Source: an uncultured virus (IMG/VR IMGVR_UViG_3300014969_000015)
Lineage: Duplodnaviria; Heunggongvirae; Uroviricota; Caudoviricetes
Virus record (IMG/VR): IMGVR_UViG_3300014969_000015
DNA: 64,000 nt
Strand: one strand, 5' to 3'
The notes under the pieces were generated by a model. It ran no database searches. It saw nothing but the letters and a program-made list of their open reading frames with translations, and was not told the origin of the DNA. Of the stretch, positions 3,081 through 56,771 are shown in pieces (within the stretch, counting starts at the first letter, position 1; the number at the start of each line of letters is the position of its first letter). The position numbers and the translations under genes were made by a program.

Positions 3081-4340
3081 CGCGGAAAGACGCCGAGCGC
3101 ATCGCGTTCAACTTGACCCATCAGACGCCGGGCCTAGCCCGCGAGATCCTGATCAACGCCGAGCGCGCCGTGATGCGCACGCTGCTGATCAGGCTCACGG
3201 GCAGCGAGGACGCCTACTGGACGCTCGTGGTCGAGGAACTAGACAAGTGACCGCGCGCGTCAGTCTCGCGAATTGCAGACCTGCACTTAATAGCCACGAC
3301 GCAAGGACAAAAATTATGATCGTTAAGCATGGTAGGGCCCGTACAGAATATGGGCCTGGTGTCAGCATTGAGCTAACCGGTGACGAGGTCGCCACGGCGA
3401 TCGATGCGTGGTTGGTAGCGCGCGGCGTCCATGTGGCAGGACCGCGCACAATTACCGTGAATAGCGAACGGTGCGAAGCTGGACACGTATACGTCGATCC
3501 GTCAGGGTATGTGATCACGGAGGGACGGAAGATTTCTGGTCGTGGCGGTGACGACAGTGGACGCTAATCGCACGGGCTTGAGTGCTTGCATCGTCTGCGC
3601 AAATCTAGCCTTCCATGAATTGTTCATGAGCGACAAGGAAGCGTTTGCCAGCTCCCTGATTCAGGGCTTACTCATGCCCCTGGGCAGTAAAAGCACCCTC
3701 AAAAACTACAAAGCCATGCGGCGCGGTGTCTGCATCGTGGAGCGCTGCGCTCGGACGATTGAGGCCCCTTGTGCAGGATGCCAAAGAGCAGACTGTGAAC
3801 GTTGCGCAATTTCGGCGGAATTGCGGGCAGCGGAAACGCGAATCCTTGCAGAGCGCGACGCCGAGCTAGACTCCGACACCTATGTTGAGGCGGTCCTCAA
3901 CGAGATGATCGAGGATTTGTGCCCTGCCCACATGGCGCTGGGGAGCTCTCTTGCTGGGCAATGGTACGGACGGCGAAGCTTTCAATCTGTCGATACGACC
4001 CATAACGATCCATGACCAAAGTGCCTGCACTTGACCTTGAAGAGACCATCAGTCCTTTGTTCGACATGTGGTTGAGCTTCGAAGCCTCGTTTGGTGATCG
4101 TGCAATCGATCAGCTAGACATTTCTGATCAGGACGCTGAGAGCATGGCCAAGAAGATGGAGGGCCTCGGATCTGCCGGCGCGGCTTTTGCGTATCTCCTG
4201 CGTAGTATTTCGCAGCGGCGGAAGTTCCGCGAGATCTGCCATGTCGCCCGTGTTGTCTGGGCAACAACTAAGGAGCCCGCTTTCTTGTCCTTACATGAAA
4301 TGTATGAGCACTACATGAAGCTGCCTAAAGGCAAAGCCTG

Positions 4341-5090
4341 ATGAAAGTTGTTTTTCTTGACATCGACGGGGTACTCAATCACAGCGCTGTGCGACACACC
4401 GCCCTGCCAACTTCAGAAGAGCCACTACCCATACCGATCGCTCCCGAATGCATGGTGCGGCTCAATCGACTCATTGCGGAAACCGGTGCCAAGATTGTCA
4501 TCTCGTCGAGCTGGCGAAAATTCGCAAGGTGGCAAGACCTCGGTCCGGCCCTTGTACGCCACGGCCTTATGGCCGAGGTGATTGGAGAAACACCGGACCT
4601 AGTAAACGATACCGCCTGGCTTGAAAGGTGGCACCAGCGCGAGGGTGGCCCGTTTCCGTATGAACGTCTCGAACGCGGTTGGGAAATTCGGGAGTGGTTG
4701 GCGCACTTCGTGACGGGGTGCTGCTCCTGTGGACACGCTCGCGATCTGCACGACGGCGGTATCGACGAATGTTTTTACAACGACCGCCCATCAGGGGCCA
4801 CCGGATGTCTATGCTGCCGATTTGACGGCAGTCCGCTTACGGGATTTGTCATCCTCGACGACTGCTCCGACATGGACGAACTGAAATCTTGGCGCGTGCT
4901 AACGGATCCCATCGTAGGGCTCGATGAGCCGGACATCGAGCGTGCGAAGTGGCTGCTAGAGCGCTCCGCGCCAGGTATCGAGGAAGCTCGCAGGAGGGCG
5001 CTCGGAATCATTGAGGTCCCAGGACGGGGGGCGCGCGACATCGATACGGACAGACTAGCTACGATTCTGACGCTTTCGAGATTGACGTAA
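4341..5090 (+). CDS. HAD-superfamily phosphatase (Swiss Army Knife RNA-repair-like HAD) with an inserted Cys/His module
   Basis: motif I VFLDIDGVLN, motif II IVISSSWR, ERGWEI, motif IV FVILDD. Confidence 0.85.
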   Translation: MKVVFLDIDGVLNHSAVRHTALPTSEEPLPIPIAPECMVRLNRLIAETGAKIVISSSWRKFARWQDLGPALVRHGLMAEVIGETPDLVNDTAWLERWHQREGGPFPYERLERGWEIREWLAHFVTGCCSCGHARDLHDGGIDECFYNDRPSGATGCLCCRFDGSPLTGFVILDDCSDMDELKSWRVLTDPIVGLDEPDIERAKWLLERSAPGIEEARRRALGIIEVPGRGARDIDTDRLATILTLSRLT

Positions 5091-5557: not shown

Positions 5558-6112
5558 GTGAACTGTCGACACGACCTCGCGAACGGAACGTGCATGCGGT
5601 GCATGCGGTGCTACCCGAGCAACCCCTACAACCGACTGCTCGCGGATCGCGTCGATCCAAATGTTGACCGATCGATCCCTGCTGGGGAGCCGCATACGCG
5701 TAACGCTGCCACCAAGGTCCTTGTCTCACGCCTGTGGGCGCTTTATGCATGGCCTGAGCAGAATCTTCCCGTGCGCGAACTGACGGTCGCGAAACTCCTC
5801 GCATACCGTGCGCAGCCTGACTACGTGAGTGATGAAGAGAGAACCCGGAAGCGCCCGACACGTGAATGGGACTACGGGCGAATCCGACACTTCTACGACT
5901 GCCTTCTGGCTGGCAAGGTGCTGGACGCGATCGAGGTTGATAACGTTTGCAACTACGGGCGGATCTATCCTGAGCCCATTCTGCTCGATGGGCATCACCG
6001 GTTGGCAGCTTCCTATCTAGCAGAGGCGTCAAGCATCTTCATTCACTATGGAGGAAGGCTCGATCTCTTGCGATACCTCAGGGGGACACGTAAGACGTGC
6101 CCCGTGGAGTAG
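5558..6112 (+). CDS. ParB/Srx-like N-terminal domain protein
   Basis: DAIEVD...ILLDGHHRLAA, the ParB/Srx arginine-patch motif. Confidence 0.6.
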   Translation: MNCRHDLANGTCMRCMRCYPSNPYNRLLADRVDPNVDRSIPAGEPHTRNAATKVLVSRLWALYAWPEQNLPVRELTVAKLLAYRAQPDYVSDEERTRKRPTREWDYGRIRHFYDCLLAGKVLDAIEVDNVCNYGRIYPEPILLDGHHRLAASYLAEASSIFIHYGGRLDLLRYLRGTRKTCPVE

Positions 6113-6817
6113 ATGCCATGAAGGAACATGAGAGGCACGCCAAAACCATCGTTGAACTTCGCGCACAGCATCCCAACGTGCTGCTGTGCCCGGCAGACTG
6201 CCGAGCCTGCAGCACTGGTATTCCGTATCCGGAGTTGACGATCGACGAGATTCGCGAGGCGCTCGCCAAGGGGCATCGTGAAGCAGAGGAGGCGTACCCT
6301 GTACTGTTTGGACGAGGTACGCCACAGTATCGGTACTGTTTGGACGCCCTGGGAGATACCCATGAGTTACGCCACAGCATCGGCGCGACGCTTGGATGAT
6401 TAAGTCTGAAGCTTCGGACCTTGCGATCACGATGTGCGTTCGGTCGCACACTTAGCGCAATCCAGGTCACAGGGACCCGCAACGCCCCGCCCGCCAGGCC
6501 CGTGCTTCCTGGGTAGCGGAGGCAGCCCAGCGCGCACTCGGCATGTGTTGCACTGGGCACCGTCCGAGATGACTGACCACGCACATTCGAGGCTGCAGCC
6601 AGAGCAACAATTATAGAGGCTCATTGGCATGAAATGTAGCACGTGTCGAAAACGTCTGAGTGCCCTGTTATCCGTTATCCTGGAACGGAGAGCCACCGCG
6701 CGGGCTGGACGGCGATCCGCTGAGCCTTGCCGCGTGGTGGAGCCGTCCTGCCGTTTCTTATCCGTTGTTTCTATATCCGCCGTGATAAAATCGAACGACC
6801 CACGTTTTGGAGATCCC

Positions 6818-8009
6818 ATGATCAATCACCTTGGACTTTACCGCCCCCTCCGCCTCCCGCTGTCGCTGTCGAGCGGAGTCACCATCCTGCCGTCGCAGAG
6901 TGCGCAAATCACCGTCCATCCACAGACAAACAAGTTTTACCCTGAGCGCCTCCTGATCAAAGAGGCCTCTCACTGGAAGATCGACGCGATCCGCGTCGGG
7001 GATCGTGACAGTGCCCTCGTCCAGAATCTCCCAGGGGCGATGTTCGCCCCCGACGCGCCTGGGCGCTTCCCGGGTTGTGGCGAGATCCAGATCCCGCCCG
7101 GCGGAGAATTGATCGTCCAGACGACGTACACTGGCCCCTGCGCGACGGGGACCCCTTTCGAGGCGTGTGTGTTCGGATCCGACGATCAGCCGCCGCTGCC
7201 GACCGTTCGTCAGGGCACGGGAAAGAAGATCACGACGGTGAGGAGCGGACGGGCGATACCTTCCAACATGCCAGTGAAGCTGTCCACGGATCCGATGAAG
7301 CACGACGCATGGCCGAGCCGTCTCGTGATCGAGGGTGCTTCTGACTGGGTCGTCAATGACGTCTGTATAGGCGAGGTGTCGATATTCGCACAGTCAGGGG
7401 AGCATGTTCTCCGAGGACGTGGAGTCCGCGATCTGTCTGGGGCGCCTGGCCGCCGGAGACAAGTTCTCGGTCGTCGCAACGTACGTCGGGACCTCGTCTG
7501 ACGCTGAGTTCGTTTACGAACTCTACGGGACCCTCGCTGAATCCGAAGCTGTTGACCTCCCAATCGCAGTGATCTTGCCAATGACTACGGGGCTGAACAT
7601 CCTGCCAAACACGTCGGCGCAGCTGACTGGCAGATGCGAGATTGGTCCTCGCAGGGGCTTCGTGGCCGAGCGAATTGTCGTTGATGGCGCAGCTGACTGG
7701 GTCTTTAATGACATCAAGATTGGACGCGCCTCTCAGTTCGCAGAATCTGGGGATATCCCTGGCCTGGCATTCAGTCCAAGGACCCTGGGAGGCCAAGTGT
7801 CCTTCGACGTCGCACGGTCCAGGATCAATTTCGCCATCACGACGACGTATATCGGACCTCGCGAGAACGGGAATTCCTTCGTCTGCGGGATCCTGGGAAG
7901 CATCGTCGACCTGACTGAGGTCAGTCCGACGCTCCGACACGGCCGGATCCTGTCGGTCCGCGATCTTCGAGGCGCGACTGGCCGCGAGTTCAACGCTCGG
8001 CGCCTCTAG
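6818..8009 (+). pseudogene. three-repeat beta-rich domain protein, frameshifted at ~7400
   Basis: three copies of a domain with ILPxxSAQ(I/L)T / ERxxIxxAxDWxxNDxxIG / QSGDxPGxxF; frame changes at cagtcagggg-agcatgttc, joining ORF 6629-7501 to ORF 7404-8009. Confidence 0.7.
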
Positions 8010-8488: not shown

Positions 8489-8836
8489 ATGAAGAAATTG
8501 CACGGCATGAAGGTCCTTGGCACCAAAGTGACGAAGCTCGGCGTCATGACGCGGGTCGAATGCGATCGCTGTCGCGGCACCGGTAACTGGGATACAAATA
8601 GCTACAGGGTTTGCTTCAAGTGCGGAGGTTATGGGGAACTACTACTCGACACTCCCGAAACGGCTTACAACAGCAAGCGCGCACACATCGAGGAAGTTAA
8701 GGGAATCATCGCCGATGATACCCGCCGCCTCGAGACCGCACGCTGGGGCAAGAACCAGATCCAGAAACACATCGACGATCGCAAGGCCCAGCTCGTCCAA
8801 CTCGAAACCGAGCTTGCCTCGATGAGGAAGTCGTGA
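8489..8836 (+). CDS. DnaJ-type zinc-finger protein
   Basis: CDRCRGTG...CFKCGGYG followed by a coiled coil. Confidence 0.6.
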   Translation: MKKLHGMKVLGTKVTKLGVMTRVECDRCRGTGNWDTNSYRVCFKCGGYGELLLDTPETAYNSKRAHIEEVKGIIADDTRRLETARWGKNQIQKHIDDRKAQLVQLETELASMRKS

Positions 8837-9443
8837 TGCGCGGCCTCGAAAAGGTGCTTTCCAACACCGGCTGTCCATGGCCTGGAGGCGTTGACGTCGA
8901 ATTCACCCAAACAGACATCCTTCAGCTCGGCAAGCTGTACTGCTGGGGCAGCTCCACCGTCTCCTTCATCGTGCGTTTGCGCGACGGCCGCGAAGTGTTC
9001 GTGCGCGCTGACAAGCAGAGCAAGGACGACGAGCGCTTTCTACGAAAAATTGCCAAACCGATCCGCGGTTGCGCGCCGGATCGCGCGGAGGGGTTCCGTA
9101 CAGTGTGGGGAGGGCCGCTCTAGCGCTGCCCTGGAGCAGAACATGCCCTACCCCGACGACAAGCCCAACCTGACCGACGACACACGCTGCCTGCTAGGTC
9201 TCATGACGGTCGCCTTCACAGTTCACAGGTGACGTGAACGAGGTGTGCCCACGTAGATAGTTACCCGTCCCTAGGCCTCCCCGTGGCATGTTGCTCTTGT
9301 GATACAGGACTCCGATGTACCCAGGGGGCAACAGAATGCGTGCTTGCCCCGTAGGGTAGAATGCTGGGTGCACTCTGGATCGGCTTCGGCTTGGAATGAT
9401 TTTTCGGGACAGCCAACGTGCCCCTGAGAGAGGATGAACAGAA

Positions 9444-9932
9444 ATGGCGAAGAAGTCTGCTAGACAGCTCAACGCAGAGATCGTGGAGGCCCTCAGCAAA
9501 CCGAGCAGCAAGCGCAAGGCAAAGAAGTCGCCACACGAGATCCGGGTACAACGCCTAAAGACGCTGCAAAGGATCATGGAGGACGTGTTCTGTGACAAGG
9601 GTTGGGCGGATACGGATCTCAATGAGCTAGAGAGCTGGATTCGTGTTGACGACGAGCTATCCGATCGCGAGTGGCTCCAGGTCGCCAAGAATCAGCTCAT
9701 TGATAACAGCGTCTTGCCTGAGCACGCGGGTGCTCCGCCAGAGAATGTACGTGCGTGGAACGACGCTTTCATCTCGACGTACCTCATGAATATCGATAGC
9801 GACATGAATGATGAAGCTGCGATCGACAGCGCTCGTCAAAATGCCAACGACACGGTCCCACTAACGGCTAATGAGCACGAGCTGACGAAGACAGATCCGA
9901 AGCTCTATGTAACAAAGCACAGGCTAACTTAG
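9444..9932 (+). CDS. hypothetical protein with N-terminal shared helical tag
   Basis: begins MAKKSARQLNAEIVEALSKP; RBS gagagg. Confidence 0.65.
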   Translation: MAKKSARQLNAEIVEALSKPSSKRKAKKSPHEIRVQRLKTLQRIMEDVFCDKGWADTDLNELESWIRVDDELSDREWLQVAKNQLIDNSVLPEHAGAPPENVRAWNDAFISTYLMNIDSDMNDEAAIDSARQNANDTVPLTANEHELTKTDPKLYVTKHRLT

Positions 9933-10403
9933 CCGGTTAGTTAAAACGGATCGGGCCTCGGGGAGCTCTGCACCGGAGGGCACTTGTGTCCTCGCACAAG
10001 GGATGAGCGCAGGCTATCCGCGCACCTGTCTGTTGTCAAGGCTTCAAAGCTGCACGACGGCCCGTGGCAGCTTACGCAGCTTTGCCATGCCGAGCGGACA
10101 CGTCGCATATTCAGGGACCCACGCGGAGCCTTCCCAGCTCGATTGTACGTAGCCCCCGCATGAGCAGTTTGTAAGCACCGTCCTGTCACCGACGGGCACA
10201 CTGTCAACAGGTCGATGTCGAAGCAGCCGATGCCACCAGATCCGAAACTTCAACCAAGCGCTCATCACAAGTTCGCACGTTGTACCAGCCTCCTGCGGTG
10301 GGATCAACCCGCGTCTAACAGGCGGTGGTGTCAGGTCGTGGATTACAGACTGCCCTTCGCGCCCCTTTGCACGTGTTTCATCACTCAGGCTAGAATGTGA
10401 GGC

Positions 10404-10901
10404 ATGGGCAAATTCTGGGAATGGTTCCGCGATTCACAGCAGCCGTTGCGTGCGCGCCGCGCGAAAGCCTCTTCGCGCAGCATAGGTCCAACGACAGGGC
10501 ATCCAAAGATGAGCCCCGAAGGCCCGACCCAGATCGAGGGACTTGATGCAGTGAACGACCGCGCGCCCGGAACGTATTTTCAAGGCTATCTTGAAGCACC
10601 GTTCACGGACTTGGTTCGCCTGCTCGGAGCCCCAAACGCGCCTGTAGACAACTACCAAACCACCACAGAGTGGAGCTTGCAGTACGAAGGTGCCCCCATT
10701 ACCATCTACGATTACAAGGCAACAACAGCGTACGATATGGGGAGGCCCTCCCCGGAAAAATTACGAGCACTTTCGAAGCATGCCTGGAATGTCGGATCAG
10801 ACGGTAGTGCAACAGCCGCTCGAGGTATTCAGCGCATCAAGGACGCGATCGCACATTCCGCACACGCAGGGCAATCAAAACAACGTGCAAGGCGGTCATG
10901 A
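10404..10901 (+). CDS. conserved phage hypothetical protein (leaderless)
   Basis: YFQGYLEA..LVRLLGAP...EW...TIYDYK...WNVG pattern; TAGAAT 7 nt before ATG. Confidence 0.6.
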   Translation: MGKFWEWFRDSQQPLRARRAKASSRSIGPTTGHPKMSPEGPTQIEGLDAVNDRAPGTYFQGYLEAPFTDLVRLLGAPNAPVDNYQTTTEWSLQYEGAPITIYDYKATTAYDMGRPSPEKLRALSKHAWNVGSDGSATAARGIQRIKDAIAHSAHAGQSKQRARRS

Positions 10902-11048
10902 AGAAAGCTGAGCAGCTGTCGAGGATGGCTTTGCACGCTTTTTGTTCCTTGGGGCGAAATTCTCACCGAATTTTCGTGCAGGCGACTTGAATAATCGTGC
11001 AGGAAACAGAGGTCAGCATGCAGTCGCGGCGCACCCGAAGGCCCTGCA

Positions 11049-11567
11049 CTAACTCTTGGCGTTGTGTCGGCGCGCATACTCCTCGCGCTCCTCGACCATC
11101 CATCGCGGTTCGAGTACTACTTCGTAGTCCTCGTGCCCCCGCTTCTTATTCATCGCTCGATGCCGCCTTACTTCACGATCGGCTTTAGCCTTCGTCATCC
11201 ACGGTGACACATACAGCGGTGGCGACCCTGGCTTTCCAAAAACGACGACACGCGAGTCGGCGCTCACATTCCGGGCTAGACCACCGCCGAGCACGCTGCC
11301 GGGCTTCCTCGCCAAGATCTCATCGATCTCGCGCTTGATCTGCGCTTTGGACTTGGGCGGTTCGACAGGGGGCCTAATCTCCTCGCGGCCATCACTATCC
11401 TCGCCGACCTCGAACACGTAGACGCTTTCACCGCGCCCCGCGGCGAGCCTCGCGGCGGCGACGCGTGCCGCACCCTTGGTTGTTGCGCTCGGCTCGATCA
11501 ACGTGTTCCCGGCCTCGTCCTCGACGCCATACTCCTTGCGGCCACGTCGCAGCTTCCTTGCCAGCAT
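11049..11567 (-). CDS. hypothetical protein with internal shared helical tag (leaderless)
   Basis: PPKSKAQIKREIDEILARKPG; TGG-TACCAT-N7-ATG upstream. Confidence 0.65.
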   Translation of the reverse strand: MLARKLRRGRKEYGVEDEAGNTLIEPSATTKGAARVAAARLAAGRGESVYVFEVGEDSDGREEIRPPVEPPKSKAQIKREIDEILARKPGSVLGGGLARNVSADSRVVVFGKPGSPPLYVSPWMTKAKADREVRRHRAMNKKRGHEDYEVVLEPRWMVEEREEYARRHNAKS

Positions 11568-19432: not shown

Positions 19433-19751
19433 AGACACGTTTCACGGCGACCATCCGTCCCGGACGGGCAGCCGCCGCGGGCAAGCTCAATTCACGCGTG
19501 ACCAATTCACGCTTGATTAATCCACATATGATCAATCCACACGTGATCGCCACAGGATCAGTCCCGAGCATCAACCGCGCGGGCAAGCGCTACTCCACCA
19601 TCAACACCGGTCCCGAGCACCCACCGCTCGGGCAAGCTCTAACATGACATGCGATCTCGAATAGTCCCGTCCCGAATGACAACTACTCGGGCAAGCTCAA
19701 AGGCTGCACCCTTCGCCACGGCTGATCCGTCCCAGACGTCAATCGCCAGAG

Positions 19752-20044
19752 CAACCTCTAGACAAATTCTGCCAATCGGCGGCGCAGCACTGCTGTCCCG
19801 CGCGTCAACCGCGCGGGTAGGATCCACTGGCCTTCGGTCCCAAGCGTCAACCTCTAGACAAATTCCGCCAATCGGCGGCGCAGCACTGCTGTCCCACGCG
19901 TCAACCGCGCGGGCAGGATCCACTGGCCTTCGGTCCCAAGCGTCAACCTCTAGACAAATTCCGCCAATCGGCGGCGCAGCACTGCTGTCCCGCGCGTCAA
20001 CCGCGCGGGTAGGATCCACTGGCCTTCGGTCCCAAGCGTCAACC
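19752..20044. repeat. 96-bp tandem triplication of a repeat-spacer unit inside the array
   Basis: near-identical units start at 19752, 19848 and 19944. Confidence 0.9.
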
Positions 20045-21746
20045 GCTCAGGCAAGTTTTACCAAGGCTCTTGCGAAAATGTAAACGTAAGCCGCATGTCT
20101 TTGTCCCAAGCGTCAACCGCTCAGGCAGGCCCCATTCTTGCGCGATCCAGGTGGACATGTCCAGAGCGTCAACCGCTCGGGCAGGCCATTAATTGCCGCA
20201 GTCCTGCCCCGCACGTCAACCGCGCGAGCAGACCCAATGGGCGGCACCGCACGTCAATCGCGCGAGCATTTCGCAGGTCCCGCGCATCAACCGCGCGGGC
20301 AAGCTTTTACATTCTGCCCCGCACATCAGCTGTGCAAGCAAGTCCACTCTCACAGCGACGGTCGATACCGCCCCTCTAACAGCAACGGCCGGTACCGCAT
20401 GTCCCGCGCATCAACCAAGCGGGCAAGCTCTTCCATTCTGCCCCACACATCAGCCGTGCAAGCAAGTCCCATCTCACAGCAACGGCCTCTACCGCGTGTC
20501 CCGCGCATCAACCAAGCGGGCAAGTTCCATTTTGAGGAAGCTTGCTACCACATGCCGGACCTCAGTCCCGAGCGTTAACCGCGCGGGCAAGCTCTATCAG
20601 GCAAACAAGTAGCAGCCAATGTCCCAAGTGTCAGCCGCTTAGGCAAGCTTTATCGCATCCCCACGCTGGCACTCCCGACAATTGCGTTTCTATTTCCGGA
20701 CGGAAGAGCTCTAGGAGCAAGGCATTGTTCCCCTGTCCCATGCATCAACTACACGGGCAAGCTTTATCTTATCCGCATTGCTCAGATTGCTATAGCTGTC
20801 CCACCACGACACGATGGTAGGCGCGCACGCATGTGTCCCGAACGTCAACCGCTCAGGCAGACTTTATCATAACGATTCACCGTCATGCGTTGCGCGGCAG
20901 TTGGAGTCCTGAGCGTCGACCGTTCAGGCAAGCTCTGCTACGATGATCCACATTATCGACACACACCTGCGTGGAATAACCTCGGGCAGATCGTCCTGAT
21001 CGTCAGCCACTCAGGCAAACTCTAGCCATGCACCTAGCAGCTAGGCCAGTGGTCGCGGACTCGGTGCGTCCCGAGCGGCAGCCGCTCAGGCAGGCTCTAT
21101 CCTAGAAGGTTTACCGCGCGGACGATGACGGTCTCCCTCGTCCCGAGCGTCAACCGCGCGGGCAGTCTCTATCACAGTAAGGATCGTCACGTCCTGGTCC
21201 CGAGCGTCAACCACTCAGGTAAGTTCTAGCGCTCCAACAAATGCCTAATAGCATTGACGGCAAATGTGCTTGTTCACGGCGCCGTTCGCTGTCCCGAACG
21301 TCAACCACTCAGGCAAGCTCTATCACCGAGCTATCATCGGTCATTGACACCCTCTTCGACTCGCGCCGTGTGTTGGTCTTGAGCGTTAATCGCTTAAGCA
21401 AACGCTAGCCGCACATCTCGTTTCGACCCGTCAGCACGACAACTACGCGCTATCAGCCCCCGCAGAGGAGCAAGCAGTGTCCCGAGCGCCAACCGCTCAG
21501 GCAAGCTCCGCCAAAGTAGTCCTGAACGTCAATCGCTCAGGCAGACTCTAAACACAGCGCTGATCCCATCACGATCCGCGTTGTCTCAACCGCCCAAGTA
21601 GTCCTGAACATCAACCGCTCAGGCAAACCGTGTCGCGCAGTGATGCCTCAAAATGTCCCCCAGCACGCTCAAGTCCCGAGCGCCAACCGCTCAGGCAAGT
21701 TCTATCACTCCAAGCTTTGAAGAAAGCGCCATCGCGACCGCATGGC

Positions 21747-21975
21747 GTCCTGAGCGTCAACCGCTCAGGCAAACGCTATTCCAAGCCTATTCGCGACCGC
21801 TCAGACAAGCGTGGTGGCCGCTCAAGTCACTTGATCTGCTGCTAGTCCTGAACGTCAGCCGCTCAGGCAAGCGCTATTCCAAGCCTATTCGCGACCGCTC
21901 AGACAAGCGTGGTGGCCGCTCAAGTCACTTGATCTGCTAGTCCTGAACGTCAGCCGCTCAGGCAAGCGCTATTCC
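21747..21975. repeat. ~98-bp duplicated repeat-spacer unit inside the array
   Basis: aagcctattcgcgaccgctcagacaagcgtggtggccgctcaagtcacttgatctgct follows the repeats at both 21747 and 21845. Confidence 0.9.
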
Positions 21976-23129
21976 ATTGATATTCCACGTGGAACCATCA
22001 GTGGCTGGCGAGTCCTGTGCGTCAACCGCTCAGGCAAGCTTTATCACGTTGTCGATCTGGGTAACTCGAAGGTTGTTTCCTGCACGGTAGCCGCTTAGGC
22101 AATCGCTATCATTCAATGCACAGACCTCTGTCGCTTAGGTAAGCTCTATCACCAGCGAGGACCGATCTTGTCCTGAACGTCAACCGTTTAGGCAGGCACC
22201 ATCACTCGATTGCTCCATCACCGACGATTCCGTTCGTCCTGAACGTCAACCGCTCAGGCAAGCGCTATCATGAAGAAACGTACCGAGTCAGCGGCGTCGT
22301 CCTGAACGGCAGCCGCTCAGGCAAGCTCTATATCGCGCGTCGCGTCTTTGAACATCAACCGCTCTATCACGAGTCAACGTGCAGGTCTCGTCCGTCCTAA
22401 GCGTCAGCCGCTCAGGCAAGCGCTATCCACGCGGAAACGTGTCGAGACAGCGCCCGGCGCGCGTTCGTCCTGTCCTGAACGTCAGCCGCTCAGGCAAACT
22501 CCATCCCCGCACCTCAACCGCTCAGGCAAACTCCATCACCGCGACGACTTGACCTGGTCCTGAACGTCAGCCGCTCAGGCATGCTCTGTTGTTTCCGGTC
22601 CTACATGTCCTGAACGTTAACCGCTCAGGCAAGCGCTATCATGCGTAGCTTGCGCTCGGCGAGGTCCGAGGCATCGTCGTCCTGAACGTCAGCCGCGCAG
22701 GCATGCTCTATCGCCGCCGCGCCACAGGGGCCGACATGGCCTGTTGTTGTCCTGAACGTCAGCCGCTCAGGCATGCGCTATCACCCCAGGTTCCAGGTAG
22801 CGGTACCTTTCACCTTGCGAGCCCCAAGCGTCAACCGCTCAGGCAGGCGCTATCACAGGCATTCATGCTCGTGCAGTCCCAAGCGTCAACCGCTCAGGCA
22901 GGCGCTATCACCATCCAAATGCCCAGGAGCGCGGCGGGGGTGGCGACGTCAGGCGCTATCACGAGAAGGCCGCACGGGGCGCGTGCCGCGTCCTGAATGT
23001 CTCAGGCAAGCTCTTTATCGCTCACCGCCAGCCCTTGCCCTGTTGCTTGTCCCAAGCGACAACCGCTCACAGTCAATAGCTATTCAATTGTCATCCCGCG
23101 ATCTTACTACCTCGATCGCGAGCACTGCC

Positions 23130-25625
23130 TCAGACGGACGAGCCTCCCACATCCGAACGAGAACCTTTGCCACGCTCTCGTCGCCGTTTCGGGAGCTTAT
23201 CAGGCTTCCCCTCGTTAGGGGGCACGGAGCCGCGCGAAGGCGCGGCCGGCACCGGTCCGCTCGTCAGTCCACGCCGATGCAGTAGATTGCGACCGGCATT
23301 CGCATCCTGGTCCCAGGTCCGCCCACACGCTTCGCACTGGATCTCGATCGTGCGTGCAAAATCTGCATGCTCTTGGTCACGACCGCACCAAGCGCATTCC
23401 CGGGTCGACTTTCTGCCACGCGCCACATCGATCACGGTGCTCGCGGTCTTGTGAGCGGCCTGCGCGATGGCCAGGCGCAGCTCCCCTGGTGCCGCCATCC
23501 GCGCCTGCCGCCGCTGCTCGCGGCCCTCGTGAGGATCTCCCTCCTCCGGGGCGAGACGGTTCCAGCCCTCGATGTCCACGATCTTCATCTGACCTTCACG
23601 ATTCTCGCTGCGGCACAGTCCGTCCTCGACGAGGATCGTCTGGTACGTGCGGGCCAGCTCCGCGGCGATCTGGCGCCATACCTCGCGGCGGTGTGCGATC
23701 GTCCGATCGCGCATGTGCGCCTCCCAGCTCCCGAGGTGGCGATCTTGCTTGGCCCATGCCTGGAGCCCTGCAAGCATCTCCGTGTCCCCCTCGAAGCGAT
23801 TTTCTTCGCGCTGCCAAGTATCGATGAGGCGCTGCAGCTTACGGGGGGCCCGCCACTGCGGCAAGCCCTTCGCGCGGTCCGCGAACCATGGCGGTAGAGC
23901 CGCGAGCGCGCGATCCAGGAGCCCGGACGGACTGTTATCCGCCGCGGGGACCGGATCCGCCGCGGGGACCGGACGATGTGCCGGGACAGGCTTTCGCCCG
24001 CTGATCCAAAGGACCAGTTGATCTCGTGCACTGTCGAGCTCTCGTGAACGGATCTGTGCGATCGAGTAAACCTTCGCGAGGCGCTGCCAGAGTCCATCCG
24101 GTGCACAGATCTCACGCTCTCGCCCGTGCTCGTCGACCAGATATGCGACGCGCAGCCCGGTCTGATTCCCGTTCTCATCGAAGATCCGCCGCCATCCGAT
24201 ATCGATCGCGCAAGTACCTCCGACAGCCAGCGGCTGCGAGGGGCGATGGAATGTATCGCTCTCGATCGTGAGCTGCACCCTCCACTCGTAGTGGATACCG
24301 ACGCGCCAGCGGTGAACGTACACCCACAGGATCTCGGCATCCTTGGGCATCCGGCGATGGTGCGTGAGCGGGAAGCGGACCCACGTGCTCTCCCGCTTCG
24401 CGGGACCCCAGCCGAACTGCATCTCGAGGTACTGCCCGTCGAGACGGGCCGGGATCTCCTGATAACCCTCCCCGTGACGCTGCCTCTTAGCCTTCCCGCG
24501 GAAGGGCTTGGCAATCCGTCTCCGAGTCGTCCGTGGAAGTTGTTCCCAGCCTTCGGGCAGGGACGTCATTCGTACGCGGACGTCGTCCCCGGAGTAGAGG
24601 TCATCCGCCGTGACGCTGTAAAGCCTTCCATCGAGGGGAATGCGGGCATCGCCAAGGAAGCGAGTGAGCAGCTCCCAGTGCCCGATAACGTAGCCTGCAG
24701 CTTTGCCAAGCGACGTCTTGTGCTTGACCTGCTCACCGAGCCAAATCTTGAGTTCCTCGAGCACCGCTGCGGACTCGGTGCGCCGAAGTGCAAAGCGCTG
24801 CACGAGATCGCCCTCTGCCCGATCGTCGATCTGGCGCAGCTTGGCAATCAGCTCGAGAGCGCGCGAAGCTTCTGGATGATCGACCTTGGCCTCCTCGAAC
24901 TTTCGGGAGCAGTGCGCCCAACAGCCCTCCGTGTCACGGGCCCGGGGCAGCTGACGGCCGATCGATCCTTCGCCTTCGTAACGCTGGAAGATCGGCGGGC
25001 GCCCCGTCGAGTCGACAGAGCGCTCCACGGCGCGCTCGATGTTGATATACGTACCGTGCATGAGGCCTTTGGCGGAAAACTCCGCGCGCGCGGCCAAGCG
25101 CCGCTCCGCGGCCAACTCTCGAACTGCGCCGTAACGGGGCTGATGGTGGTCGCGTACCTCGGACAAACCGCGGGCGTCCTTGACGTCGCGCCAAGCCTTG
25201 GCACAGTCCACCTTCAGTGCTTTGATGTGCTGCTTGATTGCCTCGTCGTCACGATGCTCGGGCGCCCGCCCCGCCTTCGCGGCACGCAGGGCCGTATAGG
25301 CCGCGTCCAACCCTGCACTCTTGGCCTCCCAGCGCACGGTCGCTTCGCGCGTGAGAGGATGATCCAGATCGATCGCTCGGAAGCTCCCACGTAGCTCGAT
25401 TTCGATCTCGGTCAGCCGGCAACGGTACTGATGCGCCAACCAAAACTGCTCATCGACCAACTTCCGGTGCTCTGGATCCTCAGGAGGCAAGATCCGATAA
25501 CTGTAGATCCGCGTGGGCTTGGTCGACGTCTTGCGCGCGCGTGATTTACGGGCTTTGGGCGGATTGCTCGAAGCTGCGTCGAGCGCACCAGGAACATTGG
25601 CCGAAGAGGTCTGATTATCGAGCAT
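23130..25625 (-). CDS. cas12m: Cas12m-like (type V-M / V-U1, TnpB-derived) RNA-guided effector with an IS66-transposase-derived insertion
   Basis: EQFWLAHQYR, GLMHGTY, FQRYEGEGSIGRQL, HRRMPKDAEI, RuvC-I CAIDIGWR, QWRAPRKL, WAKQDRHL, HRREVWRQIAAEL, RuvC-II ILVED, AAPGELR, Zn finger CAWC..CEAC and RuvC-III WDQDANA, all collinear with Cas12m; adjacent CRISPR array; likely start 25625 after aaaaggatga (ORF open from 25652). Confidence 0.85.
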   Translation of the reverse strand: MLDNQTSSANVPGALDAASSNPPKARKSRARKTSTKPTRIYSYRILPPEDPEHRKLVDEQFWLAHQYRCRLTEIEIELRGSFRAIDLDHPLTREATVRWEAKSAGLDAAYTALRAAKAGRAPEHRDDEAIKQHIKALKVDCAKAWRDVKDARGLSEVRDHHQPRYGAVRELAAERRLAARAEFSAKGLMHGTYINIERAVERSVDSTGRPPIFQRYEGEGSIGRQLPRARDTEGCWAHCSRKFEEAKVDHPEASRALELIAKLRQIDDRAEGDLVQRFALRRTESAAVLEELKIWLGEQVKHKTSLGKAAGYVIGHWELLTRFLGDARIPLDGRLYSVTADDLYSGDDVRVRMTSLPEGWEQLPRTTRRRIAKPFRGKAKRQRHGEGYQEIPARLDGQYLEMQFGWGPAKRESTWVRFPLTHHRRMPKDAEILWVYVHRWRVGIHYEWRVQLTIESDTFHRPSQPLAVGGTCAIDIGWRRIFDENGNQTGLRVAYLVDEHGREREICAPDGLWQRLAKVYSIAQIRSRELDSARDQLVLWISGRKPVPAHRPVPAADPVPAADNSPSGLLDRALAALPPWFADRAKGLPQWRAPRKLQRLIDTWQREENRFEGDTEMLAGLQAWAKQDRHLGSWEAHMRDRTIAHRREVWRQIAAELARTYQTILVEDGLCRSENREGQMKIVDIEGWNRLAPEEGDPHEGREQRRQARMAAPGELRLAIAQAAHKTASTVIDVARGRKSTRECAWCGRDQEHADFARTIEIQCEACGRTWDQDANAGRNLLHRRGLTSGPVPAAPSRGSVPPNEGKPDKLPKRRRERGKGSRSDVGGSSV
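24625..24935 (-). mobile_element. in-frame IS66-family transposase (TnpC) fragment inside the effector
   Basis: GCWAHCSRKFEEA...ALELIAKL..ID...RR..S..VLEELK.WL......SLGKAAGY...HWELLTRFLGDARIPLD matches the IS66 CWAHxRRKF...LGKAxxY...W..LxRFLxDGRxPLDNN segment. Confidence 0.8.
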
Positions 25626-25742
25626 TTTCATCCTTTTTAGAGCTAGGAACAAATCTCAGCGCGCCTTGCGAGCAAGGACATGAGCACCGCAAAGCGGCGG
25701 CGTCACGTGCTGGTGCGCTACTATGACTGGCAGTCTTCCGTC

Positions 25743-26312: not shown

Positions 26313-26596
26313 ACGGCCTCGATGAGGGCAAGATCTCGATAGATGAGCGCGCGCAGATAACTCGCCTGCGTGCGCAGGGCGCTCTTGGAGCGCTTGCGAA
26401 GACGGGCGGCTGCCCGCCGACTGATCTTCACCTGAACGAGCACGGACAGGTCTTGTTTTTTCTTCGAGACAGGCATCGAGGAGGTACCCTACATTCACAT
26501 CCGAACGCATGTCAACCGCATACTGAACCCATAACTTATGCAACGCGATGTGAAACTGATACACGTACGCGCCTCCATGTGTGGAGGGCCAGACAC

Positions 26597-26612
26597 GGGT
26601 ACCAAGCTACCC
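26597..26612. promoter_or_regulatory. GGGTA-N6-TACCC site
   Basis: gacac-gggta-ccaagc-taccc between divergent genes. Confidence 0.65.
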
Positions 26613-26678
26613 AGCCTTTACAATTGCTGTGTTACACGGCTTCGAGAAACGGCATGCGGATCGCAAGTCCGTCCAAAC

Positions 26679-27008
26679 ATGCAACAGCTAGCGCGCTCAG
26701 CCGAGCAGACCGACAGCTTCCACGAGGTCGTCGAGCAGTCCGCCGAGCAGTCCGCGGGACCTGACGTGGAAGAGCCCACGATCCTGGCCGATCTGATGAA
26801 CCGCCCGCTCACCGAGGCCAAGCGCCTCGCGGCTGCCGCGTTCGAGCGCCGTTATCTGGTACAGGTGATGGAGCGCGCAGGCGGCTCGGTCTCTGGGGGA
26901 GCACGACTCTCCGGTCTCGATCGCACCAACTTTCGTCGGCTGCTCCAGCGCCACGGCCTCCACGGGACCGCCTGCACACACACGGTCAGTTTGGAGCCGG
27001 AGCTGTAA
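26679..27008 (+). CDS. stand-alone Fis-type HTH (C-terminal domain of sigma54 activators)
   Basis: LTEAKR....FERRYL..VMERAGGSVSGGARLSGLDRTNFRRLLQRHGL. Confidence 0.8.
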   Translation: MQQLARSAEQTDSFHEVVEQSAEQSAGPDVEEPTILADLMNRPLTEAKRLAAAAFERRYLVQVMERAGGSVSGGARLSGLDRTNFRRLLQRHGLHGTACTHTVSLEPEL

Positions 27009-27808: not shown

Positions 27809-29071
27809 ATGAGCCTACGGTCCTCCATGACCCCCTACGACGCCCCTCTTCCACCGCAGTACCGCGCGTTGCAGCTTGCGGCCCGCGATGATCCCCATGA
27901 TCGGGTGGTCCTTGCGGACTGGTACGAAGAGCACGGCCATCGCGCCCTTGCCGCCTCCACGCGCCAGCTTCACGGGCTCTACCGCCCGGACACCACCACG
28001 ATGGCAGAAGTCATGTCCAGCCGCCCCGAGGTGTCCCGCCTATGGCGCGATGAGCTGCCCCAACGGCCCCACCGGACGCGCAAGCGTGTGAATAAAATGA
28101 CAGCGGCGGAGGCTGCGCAGATGCCAGGGTGGGCCGAAAAATGGGTCGCCATTGGGCTTTCGACGGAGCGTGCGGATCGGCCACGGTTCGAAGCCGCGGT
28201 CGCGGCCTGCTATCGCTACTCAGGCCTTGCCAACCCAAGAGCGATCATTTGGGCACCGTGCCCCATTGTCGTCACCTACGCAGGATCCATTGCGACGGCG
28301 GTGCTGCGTAGGCTCGGAGAGTCGGGCACCGGTGCAGTAGGTAATATAAACAGCAGCGTGCAAAGAAGCGTGTACAGTAGTATACACGGCAGCCTTGACG
28401 ATAGCGTGAGCAGCGCTGTGAATAACAGCGTGGCCGATCCTGTGTGTGTCGGCGTGGCAAAACACTTGGGAGATAATGTTCACGGTCACATTAACGCCAG
28501 CATAAACGACAACGTGGCATACACCTTGGACGACTGCGTGGCGGGCAGCGTGCGTGCAGGTGTTCGTGATGGCGTGAACATCAACCAACGTGCAGGTGCA
28601 AGCGTGGATGACAGCTTATTTGTCAACGTGCATGCCAGCGTGTGCAGCAGCGAGACCAACCTACAAAATGACATAATGCATAGCGTGGCCGACAGCGTAC
28701 GAGCCGCGGTGCCCCGCAGTGCCGACATGGCCGGACAGCTCAATGTGTACGGTGAGAGTAACTACTTGGATCAGTGGTCCTTCTACAATGGAGGGCAGTT
28801 CTGGGTAGGTTGGTACTGGTGGGGTCCGGCATCCACATCCTTTGCGCTTGACGTCCTGCGCCTCGACATCGGACACGCGCAGGAGTTGAAGGCCCGGGCG
28901 TATGCTGCGGCCCTATCCTCGGCCTGTTGGTGGTGGCCCCACAGGGATTTCGTGATTGTCAGCGAGCGCCCTACGCTGATCGCAAAGCATCCGAACGGTA
29001 AGCTCCGTGATGCGCGTTGGGAATGGACCGATGCCGCAGGAAAGCGTTGTGCGTGGAGTGTAAAGCCATGA
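27809..29071 (+). CDS. DUF6745-like phage protein with N-terminal DxxRxVLADWYEEHG motif and a central V/S/D low-complexity repeat
   Basis: DDPHDRVVLADWYEEHG; W..IGLSTERADR..FE.AV...Y...GL..P; C-terminal SACWWWPHRDFVIVSERPT. Confidence 0.65.
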   Translation: MSLRSSMTPYDAPLPPQYRALQLAARDDPHDRVVLADWYEEHGHRALAASTRQLHGLYRPDTTTMAEVMSSRPEVSRLWRDELPQRPHRTRKRVNKMTAAEAAQMPGWAEKWVAIGLSTERADRPRFEAAVAACYRYSGLANPRAIIWAPCPIVVTYAGSIATAVLRRLGESGTGAVGNINSSVQRSVYSSIHGSLDDSVSSAVNNSVADPVCVGVAKHLGDNVHGHINASINDNVAYTLDDCVAGSVRAGVRDGVNINQRAGASVDDSLFVNVHASVCSSETNLQNDIMHSVADSVRAAVPRSADMAGQLNVYGESNYLDQWSFYNGGQFWVGWYWWGPASTSFALDVLRLDIGHAQELKARAYAAALSSACWWWPHRDFVIVSERPTLIAKHPNGKLRDARWEWTDAAGKRCAWSVKP

Positions 29072-45692: not shown

Positions 45693-48568
45693 GCCTCAAG
45701 ATACCATCCACCACCCGCAGCGCGCCAGATCCGCAAGCGCTTGGTTCTTCAAGGCCTTCCCATACCACATGGTGGGTGCCCAGATACCCGGCTCCTAGCT
45801 GCCACACCCTTGTGAAGGGTAGAGGCAGGGTGAAAATGCACTCACAGCCACTAATCACGGGCTTGCCTTGGGGTCCTGCTCGGCACATAGATCGCAAGGA
45901 GCCTTTGTCCATGAATAAGCCTACGAGCACGCATGCAGCGCTGGCAGCCATGGCGCTGGAAGACGCGAGGAAGACGCGACTTGACGAAGAAGCGTCTGGT
46001 CGCGTGCGCCTCGACGCAATCGAGGCTGTGCGCTCGTGCGGACTTTCGCTCCGAGAGGCAGTGACTGCCATCGACCATGTTTTGCTACACGGTCACCACT
46101 ATCTCCATGACGGTGTGGGACGCTAATGTCGGCACTGAAGTACTCGTATGAAGACCTCGTGGGGTACGCAAGCCTTGCGATCGATGAGCATTTCAAAGAG
46201 CATCCTGGGGAGATCCACAAAGTTATTGGAGAGCTAAGAAAAGCGTTTCCGATGTCTCTTCGAGATGCCCTCGATATCGTCAAAGAAGCGCGCCTCCGTA
46301 GGCTAGCTGACCTTAAAATTCTCATCCGGCGCGGATGAGCTGCCTATCTCTGACTATGCCGTCACTATTCGCGGTCACCGATCTATCAAGGGCGCTGAAT
46401 GATCATCAAAACTGAGACAATTAACGGCAGGCAAATTGAGATCCACGAGCATGCCTCCGGGCATCGACGCTTTTGGGCGAAGGTGGATCAGCAAGAGTTA
46501 CTGAAGGCTGGGAGCCTGCGCGAAAGATTGTTTACAACGGCCGATGCAGCACGGGCTGCTGCCCTCAAAGAGACCGAGATTTCTCAGACAGATGGTCTAC
46601 CCGTACCGGGCGCGCGGGCGCGTGGGCGCGGAGCCCGGCAGCGCACACGCGAGAAGGAACGGGAAAATGCAGGGGGACCTCGTCCCGTACCTGGCTATTC
46701 TAACTTCGGAGGAGGGGGTCCATTCGCTCCCATGGGCACTCCGCCTCGGACACCAAAGTGAGGTTTGCCATGCGTCTCCGACTTTGCGCGCTCCTTCTGA
46801 TCAGCCGTGGCATCACGGCCTGCACCACTGAGAACCTGCCCATCGATTCACCATCCGCGGTCCTCTTGATCTGCGGAGAAGCTCCCCGACCCTCGGCTAC
46901 ACCGTCAATTACGTATTTACTCCAAGACGGGGTGTGGGCCGCCATGATGTCCCAATCAGATCTCGAAGCTCTCATGGTTGATCAAGACCGCCTATCCTCA
47001 TGGGAGCGTTGTGCTACCGAGGCGTTCGTGCTGACCTGCCCACGGAAAAATTGAGGATGCGCGACTGTCCAAAGCAAAAATCCCCCAGCACCCCACAATG
47101 CCACAAGCACCTGGATGAGGTGCTAGCCAGGATTTACACAATCTGGCCCGCCGATCGTGAGGGCGTGTTGGCCACGTCATCCGGCGCCTGGCACCAGGAT
47201 CGTCACTGGCTGGTCCTCGACATCACGGATGGCTTGGACCAAGCGCGTGTCGTCGAAGGACCGGTTTCTCGAGAGACAGCCCTGCAGCGACAGCTAGAGC
47301 TCCGCACAATTTGCAGGGACCTGCCGTGACGCTCGCCGACAAGCGCAAGGTGATCGAGGTGCTGATGTGCACCGGAGATCCCAACAAACTACTGCTGTTC
47401 GAGGTCGCGTCAGCCTTGGGCCGTAGCAGCGCTCCGGGGTATCGCGCCCTCGATGCCGTCCAGTTCGACAGCGACAACTATACCGGGCGCTGTCTCGAGG
47501 CTGCCTACCGTCTGATCGAGTCGTCGCCGACACTGCGGGGGGAATGGTTCGGATCGCAATGAGTGAAACAACGCAGGAAGAAGCACGCTGGGAAACCTGG
47601 GACCGCAACCGACTGCTCAAGCTCGTGGAGAAGCTACCGAGCACAATTCGAATTGGTATCTCACACCATGCCGATAGCATGTGGGCGCGGCGGCGGTCGC
47701 GGCATGCCGCGGCGGTCGGGAGGGCAGCGTGAGCCAACCGCGTGCGGATCTCCGTCATGGGCCGATGGGCTGGATCTTCCCGGGTCCATGGGAAGAGCGC
47801 CAACGGTATGACGACGTCGACTGCGCTCGCGGCATCCGAGCGCGGTGCGGCTGCGGGGAGTGCACCACACACCGCGCTGTCGTAACCCGCAACAAGGCGC
47901 TCACTCGCCTCGGAGCCCGCCGCGAGTCGTTGCAGACACTGCGGCGGGAATGGTTCGCTCGCAAGTCTTACCCCAACAGCTTACATAGGGAAGTTCCATG
48001 ATTGATGACAAAACCACGCTGACACATCAGCGGACCGCTCTCGTCGAGAGCCTCCTGACCCCGCTGTCAGCGCAAGAGCGCATTCGTGTTCAAGGGGAGC
48101 TTTCCCTCATCAATGCCAAGATCAAGGCACAGAACACAACGCTAGCTGCACAGCTCAAAGCCGCCGCCGACCAGCGCAAGGTGTCAGGGCTGCTGGAGGC
48201 TCAAGCTAACGCCGCAAGGGCTCAGGGAAGAACCCCACGGGTCCCTGATCCGTCGACACCAGCGACCGCAACGGACGCTTGGATTGACGCCGTGCTGCTC
48301 CATCACGACATTGACTTCACACGTACGGCTGCCGGCAAGATCTCGCTCAACGTTCAACGTTTCACCGCCCTATAGCGCCGTCCTTGAAATGCTTATTGCA
48401 GGAATCTATGCACAGGCTCGAGGACAGGCGCTGCCAGAGCTGCCGCTGATTCAACCTAAAGCCCAGGCCCCTGAGCCCCGTCGCCCATCCAAGTCCAAGA
48501 ATGCCAAGAAGCGCTGAAGCGGACCTGGACAACGCGGCGACGCCGCGGAGTGTGTCGAGCTGTTCATG

Positions 48569-50895: not shown

Positions 50896-51131
50896 GTGCA
50901 GGGGCCCGCGCCAGCCCGCGGTCTCCTAGGGCCGCAGTACGCCGAGTGGCCGAAGGGGGTCGCGCACCAGAGGGCCACGCGCCAGAGGGTCACGCACCAG
51001 TCATGACAACCAACACAAACACAAACCACGCCGACATTGCGCCTCCCCCGGGCGCGGAGGCTCGTTGCGAGGAGACATTACTCCTCCCCCGGGCGAGGAG
51101 GCTTGTTGCGAGGAGCGAAAAGGAGCCTTCC

Positions 51132-56739: not shown

Positions 56740-56771
56740 CCTGCCCGAAAATCTAATAGTTAGCACCTAAA

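Follow-up and report, generated by a model that had tools for sequence, protein, structure and literature searches.

A Cas12m-family effector with a grafted insertion domain from an IS66 transposase

Results and discussion

In a 64,000-nucleotide stretch of DNA from an uncultured virus of the Caudoviricetes (IMG/VR record IMGVR_UViG_3300014969_000015; the whole stretch is called the window below), the minus strand carries a gene for an effector of the Cas12m family that contains, in frame, a segment of a transposase. The segment corresponds to the alpha-helical insertion domain (ID) of an IS66-family transposase. We are highly confident that it is a real, inherited and selected domain graft. 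Our best explanation as a whole, which adds a role as an accessory module beside the duplex of the protospacer adjacent motif (PAM), is put forward tentatively, with the chances slightly against it. The graft had first been proposed from the nucleotide sequence alone, without database searches (the original prediction).

The grafted segment and its donor

The features on which the argument rests are the following (positions in the window; residues counted from the TTG start of the effector).

23130..25652, minus strand: Cas12m-family effector gene with the graft, an 840-amino-acid open reading frame (ORF) from TTG, assigned by homology and fold
24630..24926, minus strand: the graft, residues 243-341, an all-alpha IS66 transposase insertion domain of five helices (Pfam, sequence identity, AlphaFold 2 (AF2) models)
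24912..24923, minus strand: CxxH motif C244-W-A-H247, from the transposase insertion domain
24945..24968, minus strand: WED beta-strand SIGRQLPR, residues 229-236 (AF2 strand 229-234 and profile alignment to 8hio_A)
24201..24203, 23625-23627 and 23304-23306, minus strand: RuvC triad D484, E676 and D783 (conserved columns)
23325..23396, minus strand: TNB zinc-ribbon cysteines C753, C756, C773 and C776 (Pfam Cas12f1-like_TNB, residues 724-790)

The site has no long ORF other than the effector gene, which around the graft reads ...GRQLPRARDTE-GCWAHCSRKF...SLGKAAGY...HWELLTRFLGDARIPLD-GRLYSVTADDLYSGDD..., and the flanking and insert strings quoted in the original prediction all lie within its open frame. 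Pfam DDE_Tnp_IS66 matched residues 242-341 with an E-value of 3.3e-18 and 66.5 bits (cut-off 23.1), at profile positions 150-255 of 284. The segment as it had been delimited at first (24625..24935), translated into 103 residues and searched alone against Pfam, gave an E-value of 1.2e-19. Its predicted length of about 105 residues has to be corrected: the segment stands, but it has 99 residues in the window and 100 in most relatives. When the segment alone was used for a sequence search, other Cas12m-like proteins were found first, followed by IS66 transposases of 480-520 residues. The best of these was P0109, a transposase of 494 residues, which is 74% identical to the graft over its residues 322-421. 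An exhaustive search of cluster representatives gave 2106 matches at E <= 0.001; the 150 of them that were listed are 93-616 residues long, and the match lies at about residues 310-450 in the full-length proteins. Because of the Pfam E-values and the 74% identity to a genuine IS66 transposase, a chance match is excluded at the sequence level.

The extent of the copied piece was defined with a reference alignment of 125 IS66 transposases, in which P0109, the nearest transposase, served as the numbering reference. D250, D303 and E426, the last within the NNxxER motif, are invariant or nearly so and form the DDE triad; C323 and H326 of the CxxH motif are invariant. The AF2 model of P0109 (pLDDT 88.1) has the core strands of an RNase H fold including beta5 (318-321), then five helices (324-334, 341-357, 362-387, 394-404 and 406-409) and then the Glu helix (423-439) with E426. 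In the alignment the graft spans G-CWAH to RIPLD and ends directly before the NNxxER of the transposases. Its helices in the AF2 model of the effector (245-256, 262-278, 283-309, 314-324 and 326-334; pLDDT 81-96) mirror those of P0109 at a constant offset of about 79 residues. Alignment and models agree with the extent given in the original prediction, from CxxH to just before NNxxER, since the copied stretch begins after beta5 and stops before the E426 helix. The surmise that its ends lie near domain boundaries can be sharpened, as both coincide in the models. As modelled, the segment is the complete all-alpha ID of that enzyme and the graft ends are domain ends; by prediction it forms a five-helix bundle of its own. 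The central claim, an IS66 helical ID within a Cas12m-like effector, is borne out by Pfam, by sequence identity and by the models of both proteins.

The closest structural matches of the P0109 model in the PDB were ISCth4 (IS256 family, E 1.9e-6) and Hermes, both of which have alpha-helical IDs. In its treatment of insertion domains, the ISCth4 paper describes all-alpha IDs that have a C/DxxH motif and split the catalytic domain ahead of the Glu helix (PMC7780238). The donor domain shows both properties: it is all-alpha and placed between a core strand and the Glu helix, and it has C/DxxH at its start. In this it resembles the IDs of ISCth4/IS256, Hermes/hAT, Transib, the P element and RAG1. 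Unlike the IDs of these RNase H-like transposases, the one described here is cut from its catalytic core and set in an unrelated, RNA-guided protein. We know of no other ID outside transposases or recombinases.

With IS66 TnpC (DDE_Tnp_IS66, NF033517) the effector shares the 74% identity, the same five predicted helices and CxxH, but it has the insertion domain only; zf-IS66, the HTH region, the N-terminal region and the C-terminal domain are absent. It scored 65.5 bits against the NCBIfam equivalog NF033517, below the family cut-off of 180, whereas P0109 scored 303. The catalytic D, D, E triad is not found in the effector: D303 and E426 of P0109 lie outside the copied residues 322-421, D250 lies farther upstream, and the flanks of the graft are Cas12m sequence. 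The absence of catalytic DDE residues had been foreseen, and by its sequence the graft-bearing protein is not a transposase. The original prediction also held that tnpA and tnpB are missing. In agreement with this, Pfam found no IS66 tnpA, tnpB or tnpC among 74 ORFs of at least about 150 residues in the window or 29 ORFs of at least 110 residues within about 7 kb, and no IS66-related match in the 11 other ORFs of L001, a second insert-bearing locus. Inverted repeats of an insertion sequence (IS) were outside this search; on both sides of the graft the coding sequence is continuous Cas12m sequence.

The recipient protein

In a single-sequence phmmer search against solved structures, the effector matched Cas12m 23vw_A (E 1.6e-35) and Cas12m2 (E 3.1e-17). 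With a profile of 105 homologues the values were 3.4e-141 for 23vw_A, 6.6e-84 for Cas12m2, 2.2e-81 for 8pm4_A and 5e-65 for UnCas12m4a, and these four Cas12m proteins were covered over nearly their full length. The AF2 model, built on the homologue alignment (pLDDT 86.4, pTM 0.79), matched 8hhl_A in Foldseek (E 3.5e-24, TM (target) 0.80). In the VIA fold comparison it superimposed on 8pm4_A (GoCas12m) with Z 22.6 over 564 residues and on 8hhl_A (Cas12m2) with Z 22.3 over 558 residues; the runner-up family was Cas12p with Z 15.8. The top PADLOC model was Cas12u1 (E 1.5e-65), which is an older subtype name. As profile homology, the fold Z of 22 and PADLOC agree, the host protein is assigned to the Cas12m family (type V-M, formerly V-U1), for which RNA-guided DNA binding would be expected by family.

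The model has the bilobed Cas12m fold with WED, REC1, a REC2 coiled coil, RuvC and an inserted TNB zinc ribbon. In the homologue alignment the columns of D484 and E676 are nearly invariant and that of D783 is invariant, which gives a canonical D-E-D triad; by profile alignment the three residues correspond to His317, Asp485 and Asp579 of Cas12m2. The RuvC triad of Cas12m2 is named, and D-E-D is listed among the triads of Cas12m clades, in the Cas12m2 account consulted here (PMC10442227). Cas12m orthologues with D-E-D, H-D-D or N-D-D triads are described in part of a second study as binding DNA without cutting it (PMC11013384). The four zinc-ribbon cysteine columns are invariant or nearly invariant in the 105 homologues. 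Translation probably begins at the ATG at 25625 (residue 10, MLD...), which matches the N-termini of all 15 aligned homologues.

MmCas12m2 (8HHL, 8HIO), GoCas12m (8PM4) and Cas12m 23VW resemble the protein in full-length homology, fold and domains, and a repeat array downstream may be a further likeness. Characterised Cas12m proteins have about 600 residues according to the part of the literature that gives sizes (PMC11013384), compared with about 700 without the graft and 810-840 with it in the group described here. Unlike them, the present protein has a 100-residue transposase-derived bundle in a WED loop and a D-E-D triad, and in both insert-bearing loci for which DNA is available the arrays are highly degenerate. 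No other grafted domain was found in 11 large homologues, where Pfam gave the TNB domain only.

Apart from the graft the protein contains a further addition, which stands as an observation of its own.

23895..23987, minus strand: second in-frame insertion of about 31 residues, rich in Pro, Val and Ala (residues 556-586, alignment columns 566-597)

This insertion is specific to the protein of the window, being absent from all 15 aligned relatives, and is modelled with a pLDDT of 70-76. One contig of sequencing run X1 has a 3-nt in-frame length variant within it, at 23955.

Occurrence of the insert in independent assemblies

A set of 107 homologues was collected with the C-terminal part of the effector. 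Eight clusters among them have both the IS66 match (PF03050) and TNB; seven are full-length proteins of 807-824 residues and one, P0088, is truncated and internally deleted. In an alignment of 108 homologues, eight had a long segment at the site, and the ninth bearer, the partial P0088, was misaligned there. In total, nine further insert bearers are known from independent JGI, ENA and Logan assemblies, namely the seven full-length clusters, P0088 and locus L001, whose insert-bearing gene is available as DNA. The PF03050 insert is missing from about 29 relatives that are just as close and have about 700 residues. The insert bearers share the junction RDTE|GCW...(I/S)(P/S)L(D/N)|G(R/Q)L, of which the window has the type RDTE|GCW...PLD|GRLYS. 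In uninserted relatives a 10-residue loop of the RDKEGRLYS type joins both flanks, which substantiates the earlier statement that the flanks are close together in related effectors.

As the window is a soil metagenome assembly, a chimeric contig or an IS66 remnant in a dead gene has to be considered, and the truncated, internally deleted P0088 might be taken as a sign of such decay. Three other studies provide contigs that run across the junctions at 95-100% identity: X2 (24867-25652) and X3 (24655-24995) on the N-terminal side and X4 (24324-24706) on the C-terminal side. Run X1 covers the whole stretch and was not counted, as it is maybe the source sample. The same junctions recur in the nine further sequences, the frame is open over 840 codons with RuvC triad, zinc-ribbon cysteines and WED motifs intact, and both insert and backbone are under purifying selection (see below). 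Hence we consider the chance of an artefact or dead gene negligible. Support for the junctions from independent contigs, and a constrained insert in other genomes, were also the checks named in the original prediction, and both came out in favour of a genuine graft.

The gene of the window is also present in Logan contigs from several soil and rhizosphere studies. Viral contigs yielded only distant relatives of the effector (36% and 27% identity), both without the insert; the one with 36% identity lies at 6001-7980 of a 95-kb IMG/VR contig that is classed as viral (L013). A pattern scan of genome contigs for relatives gave 41 matches and no true relative among them.

Origin and spread

An insert tree was calculated from the 100-residue segment of nine Cas12m copies and 92 IS66 transposases, with six very long rows excluded; it has few columns and its bootstrap values are rough. 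The nine Cas12m copies form one clade (ultrafast bootstrap 100, SH-aLRT 98) and P0109 is its sister (100/91). Because of this topology, the sequences point to one acquisition from one IS66 lineage.

The backbone tree (44 rows, insert removed) has a different shape. All insert bearers fall within one clade of 18 rows (support 97), in which they are scattered. The protein of the window groups with the uninserted P0002 and P0003 (99), and the other seven bearers fall in a clade of nine rows (95), together with the uninserted P0015 and P0017. Since the distribution of the insert conflicts with the backbone tree, the insert has either been excised exactly on several occasions or been moved between alleles by homologous recombination. 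In the careful insert tree, the copy of the window groups with those of P0006, P0011 and P0088 (88/94), which favours transfer. Quick insert trees were unstable internally: the copy of the window was basal in the quick tree and nested in the careful one. No clear recombination mosaic was seen around the insert when window-wise identities of the protein to inserted and uninserted relatives were compared. Residues 342-380 are 82% identical to P0002 and P0003 versus 84-87% to four insert bearers, a difference based on too few sites.

Selection on the insert

Between the window and L001 the insert has a dN/dS of 0.26 (99 codons, dS 0.77), and the flanks have values of 0.107 (residues 40-242) and 0.094 (residues 342-800) at a dS of about 1.3. 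Within the insert pN is far below pS (Fisher p 1.2e-6), and nonsynonymous change exceeds that of the backbone (p 0.013). The insert is conserved at least as well as residues 100-160 of REC. Among near-identical strains, 5 synonymous and 3 nonsynonymous changes were counted in the insert, and 10 and 6 elsewhere. CxxH is intact in six of the nine Cas12m copies; P0013 has lost the Cys, P0021 the His and P0014 both, and Y401 is replaced by Phe in two of the nine. Taken together, the sequences suggest that the constraint on the insert is real but relaxed and that the transposase-specific motif is no longer protected.

Adaptive hydrophobic-to-polar changes in the graft were considered and dropped, as the differences at W347 and W385 are also found in the sister transposase P0109.

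Position in the WED domain and possible role

The profile alignment to Cas12m2 contains a shared motif R(F/Y)(D/E)G.G.I..QL.R, in which Q234 corresponds to Gln195 and P236 to Gln197; the insertion point E242|G342 falls between Pro203 and Pro204. In the available description of Cas12m2, Gln195 and Gln197 of WED make base-specific contacts to the PAM, and the PAM duplex lies between WED and REC1 (PMC10442227). The graft starts six residues past the WED strand that is aligned to this PAM-reading strand. The acceptor loop is variable in length and has 1 to 29 residues in other family members.

We propose the following course of events. An ancestor of this Cas12m group gained, apparently once and in frame, the whole alpha-helical ID of an IS66-family DDE transposase. 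The transferred piece was the sub-domain between beta5 and the catalytic-Glu helix of the RNase H fold and nothing else, and the acceptor was the variable WED loop, six residues past a strand of the PAM-reading type. In part of a shallow clade the bundle has evolved since then under purifying selection, at about twice the rate of the core. As it is anchored just past the PAM-reading strand, the module most likely lies beside the PAM-proximal duplex. There it could provide an accessory surface that alters the engagement of DNA around the PAM, in principle like a PAM-interacting (PI) domain, and would have no catalytic role. This would re-use a domain type that is in contact with flanking or target DNA in other transposases. 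We would give a DNA-proximal accessory role of this kind rather less than an even chance.

There are parallels for both partners. In the text on IDs in various transposases, these domains are described as binding cofactors, partner proteins, other subunits and flanking or target DNA (PMC7780238). The Cas12m protein itself belongs to a family that, as reported in PMC11013384, increased in size from TnpB through insertions, of which several lie in WED. The PI domain, which is named as an acquisition of the larger Cas12 enzymes (PMC10442227), offers a comparison. In Cas12a it is a mostly helical extra domain in WED which, together with REC1, flanks the PAM duplex. Unlike a true relative, it has no sequence relation and no established structural relation to the IS66 module, and the likeness is one of possible mode, not of family. 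The insertion point within WED probably also differs from that of the Cas12a PI domain, judging from the domain boundaries of AsCas12a.

A number of points weigh against a selected module at the DNA. The closest relatives of the window's protein, P0002 and P0003 (85% and 84% identical), have no insert. A tree constrained to place the eight insert-bearing backbones in a single clade is worse by 128 log-likelihood units and is rejected (approximately unbiased test, p 1.8e-5). Because its distribution among close relatives is patchy, the module is dispensable or optional for core activity. The dN/dS values rest on one DNA pair and on short sequences. The amino-acid distance of the insert is 1.86 times that of the backbone (median of 28 pairs of insert bearers), and C323, H326 and Y401, which are invariant in the transposases, are altered in two to three of the nine copies. 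The net charge of the module is about zero (16 K/R, 16 D/E; -3 to +1 in other copies), which is atypical of a classical DNA-binding surface and does not favour one. The placement of the module relative to DNA would follow from sequence alignment and strand order.

Some of these points would also suit a tolerated passenger, i. e. an ID in a permissive surface loop that has no function of its own, is kept in frame, folded and soluble by selection only so as not to harm the effector, and can be lost at no cost. As the loop ranges from 1 to 29 residues across the family, it may well be permissive; the nearest relatives have no insert, and the distribution of the insert requires several losses or exchanges. 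Its rate of evolution is about 1.9 times that of the core, and its dN/dS is 2.5 times higher. The decay of transposase-invariant motif residues in three of the nine copies points in the same direction. However, with a dS of 0.77, a dN/dS of 0.26 departs strongly from neutrality (p 1.2e-6), and the insert is as well conserved as the functional REC residues 100-160. The copy of the window groups with P0006, P0011 and P0088 (88/94), and its backbone belongs with uninserted proteins (99); should this be real, the insert entered a second lineage and was kept there. On balance we regard a mere passenger as rather unlikely.

A side observation concerns the same site. P0005 (761 residues) has a different, Cys-containing segment of 52 residues exactly at the insertion point. 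Its protein sequence weakly resembles the frame-shifted DNA of the insert (z 4.0 for the window, 2.4 for L001), and the segment may have arisen from the same graft by decay. Read in this way, it could represent ongoing decay, as would be expected of a passenger.

The ID could also have retained a protein-protein surface of the transposase, by which the effector associates with itself or binds IS66 subunits, recruiting them to sites specified by RNA or poisoning their assembly. A docking or DNA-binding surface, and recruitment of or interference with IS66 transposases, had been suggested as possible functions in the original prediction. Alpha-helical IDs control multimerisation in Hermes and are part of the RAG1-RAG2 interface, according to the account of these domains in PMC7780238. 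The copy retains 74% identity to an extant IS66 lineage, and its neutral charge suits a protein surface better than a DNA surface. Yet neither the window nor L001 has an IS66 gene in the vicinity of the effector, close relatives whose locus is otherwise the same do without the insert, the IS66-invariant residues are drifting, and the idea that the IS66 ID is an interface has no support so far. We therefore consider docking improbable. A complex prediction with P0109 and effector residues 225-360 (score 0.00, mark 0.32) weighs neither for nor against binding. The accessory module beside the PAM duplex is the reading that we retain, at the tentative level stated at the outset.

Repeat array and neighbouring genes

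Two further elements flank the effector gene.

19560..23086, minus strand: array of 49 degenerate 36-nt hairpin repeats, directly 3' of the effector, with a spacing of 32-126 nt
26538..27008, plus strand: small gene with a Fis-type helix-turn-helix (HTH), divergent and upstream of the effector (Pfam HTH_8, E 3.6e-06)

The repeats of the array have a mean pairwise identity of 0.68 and are irregularly spaced. Their 8-bp stem is nevertheless preserved: 93.7% of cells are paired, and seven of the eight pairs show compensatory changes, a value reached in none of 500 shuffles. The array looks old and no longer growing, with repeats that seem to evolve singly under selection for RNA structure. L001 has an array of the same kind (8494-11286; 38 repeats, 70% alike). 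In the uninserted subclade, the arrays of L004 and L005 are canonical (98% alike, spacing 71-75) and that of L003 is 85% alike. The coincidence of a degenerate array with the insert is an observation and not a correlation, as it compares two loci with three and clade is confounded with insert.

No Cas1-like Pfam match was found among the 74 ORFs scanned in the window, a scan that ORFs below about 110 residues fell outside. A comparison of 33 inter-repeat segments with the rest of the window for self-targeting gave as the best result an exact match of 16 nt. It lies in mid-spacer, between segment 22432-22470 and 47483-47498 (ORF 47294-47872), has no extension and is probably due to chance.

The product of the HTH gene is 52% identical over 140 residues to that of an ORF upstream of the uninserted effector in L002; on sequence grounds it may be a conserved neighbour or a regulator. 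Five of the 74 ORFs of at least about 150 residues had a Pfam family at E <= 1e-5: HAD_SAK_2 (4329-5087), the HTH_8 gene, GerE/LuxR (50883-51611), RuvB (56760-57830) and the effector, which was scanned separately. The others are orphan genes, with a weak DUF6745 match in ORF 27809-29071. In L001 (12391-13149) and L003 (10500-11200), genes with collagen-like triplet repeats follow downstream of the array at a distance of a few kb.

Implications

The protein is a Cas12m effector whose extra domain can be traced to a transposase, and we did not find this variant described: a literature search for Cas12m or Cas12 in combination with IS66, which did not extend to the supplementary tables of Cas12m surveys, returned no paper on such a chimera. 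A precedent is HNH-Cascade, in which an HNH domain is inserted in Cas8 of type I-F1; it is likewise a natural in-frame foreign domain in a CRISPR effector subunit (PMC11459484). There, however, the insert is a catalytic nuclease with a clear role, whereas here it is a non-catalytic transposase sub-domain.

A far-reaching possibility is that the captured ID still recognises IS66 transposase subunits and couples RNA-guided binding to the IS66 transposase. We regard this as very unlikely. If it were true, IS66 insertion could be steered to sites specified by the guide, comparable to CRISPR-associated transposons (CASTs) but from a different transposon family; alternatively, the effector would inhibit IS66 transposition, either directed by its guide or in a dominant-negative manner. 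The old arrays next to both insert-bearing genes, which have kept their hairpins, would then represent a fixed set of targets and not an immune memory.

The significance of the graft itself lies in the growth of Cas12 proteins. Cas12 enzymes are thought to have grown from a TnpB core by added domains (REC2 or 'Roof', WED insertions, PI). The donors of such additions are almost never traceable, and here the donor is one IS66 lineage at 74% identity. What was moved is a clean structural sub-domain, and the acceptor site adjoins the PAM-reading strand. It is a rare natural case of a CRISPR-type DNA-binding protein gaining a domain, and it shows that insertion domains of transposases can persist outside a transposase. 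The protein of the window and P0002, 85% identical outside the module, form a natural pair of alleles with and without it. Such alleles make the effect of a new WED insertion on PAM recognition and DNA binding directly testable, and a loop that tolerates a folded insert of 100 residues may be of use for engineering compact Cas12m base editors or repressors.

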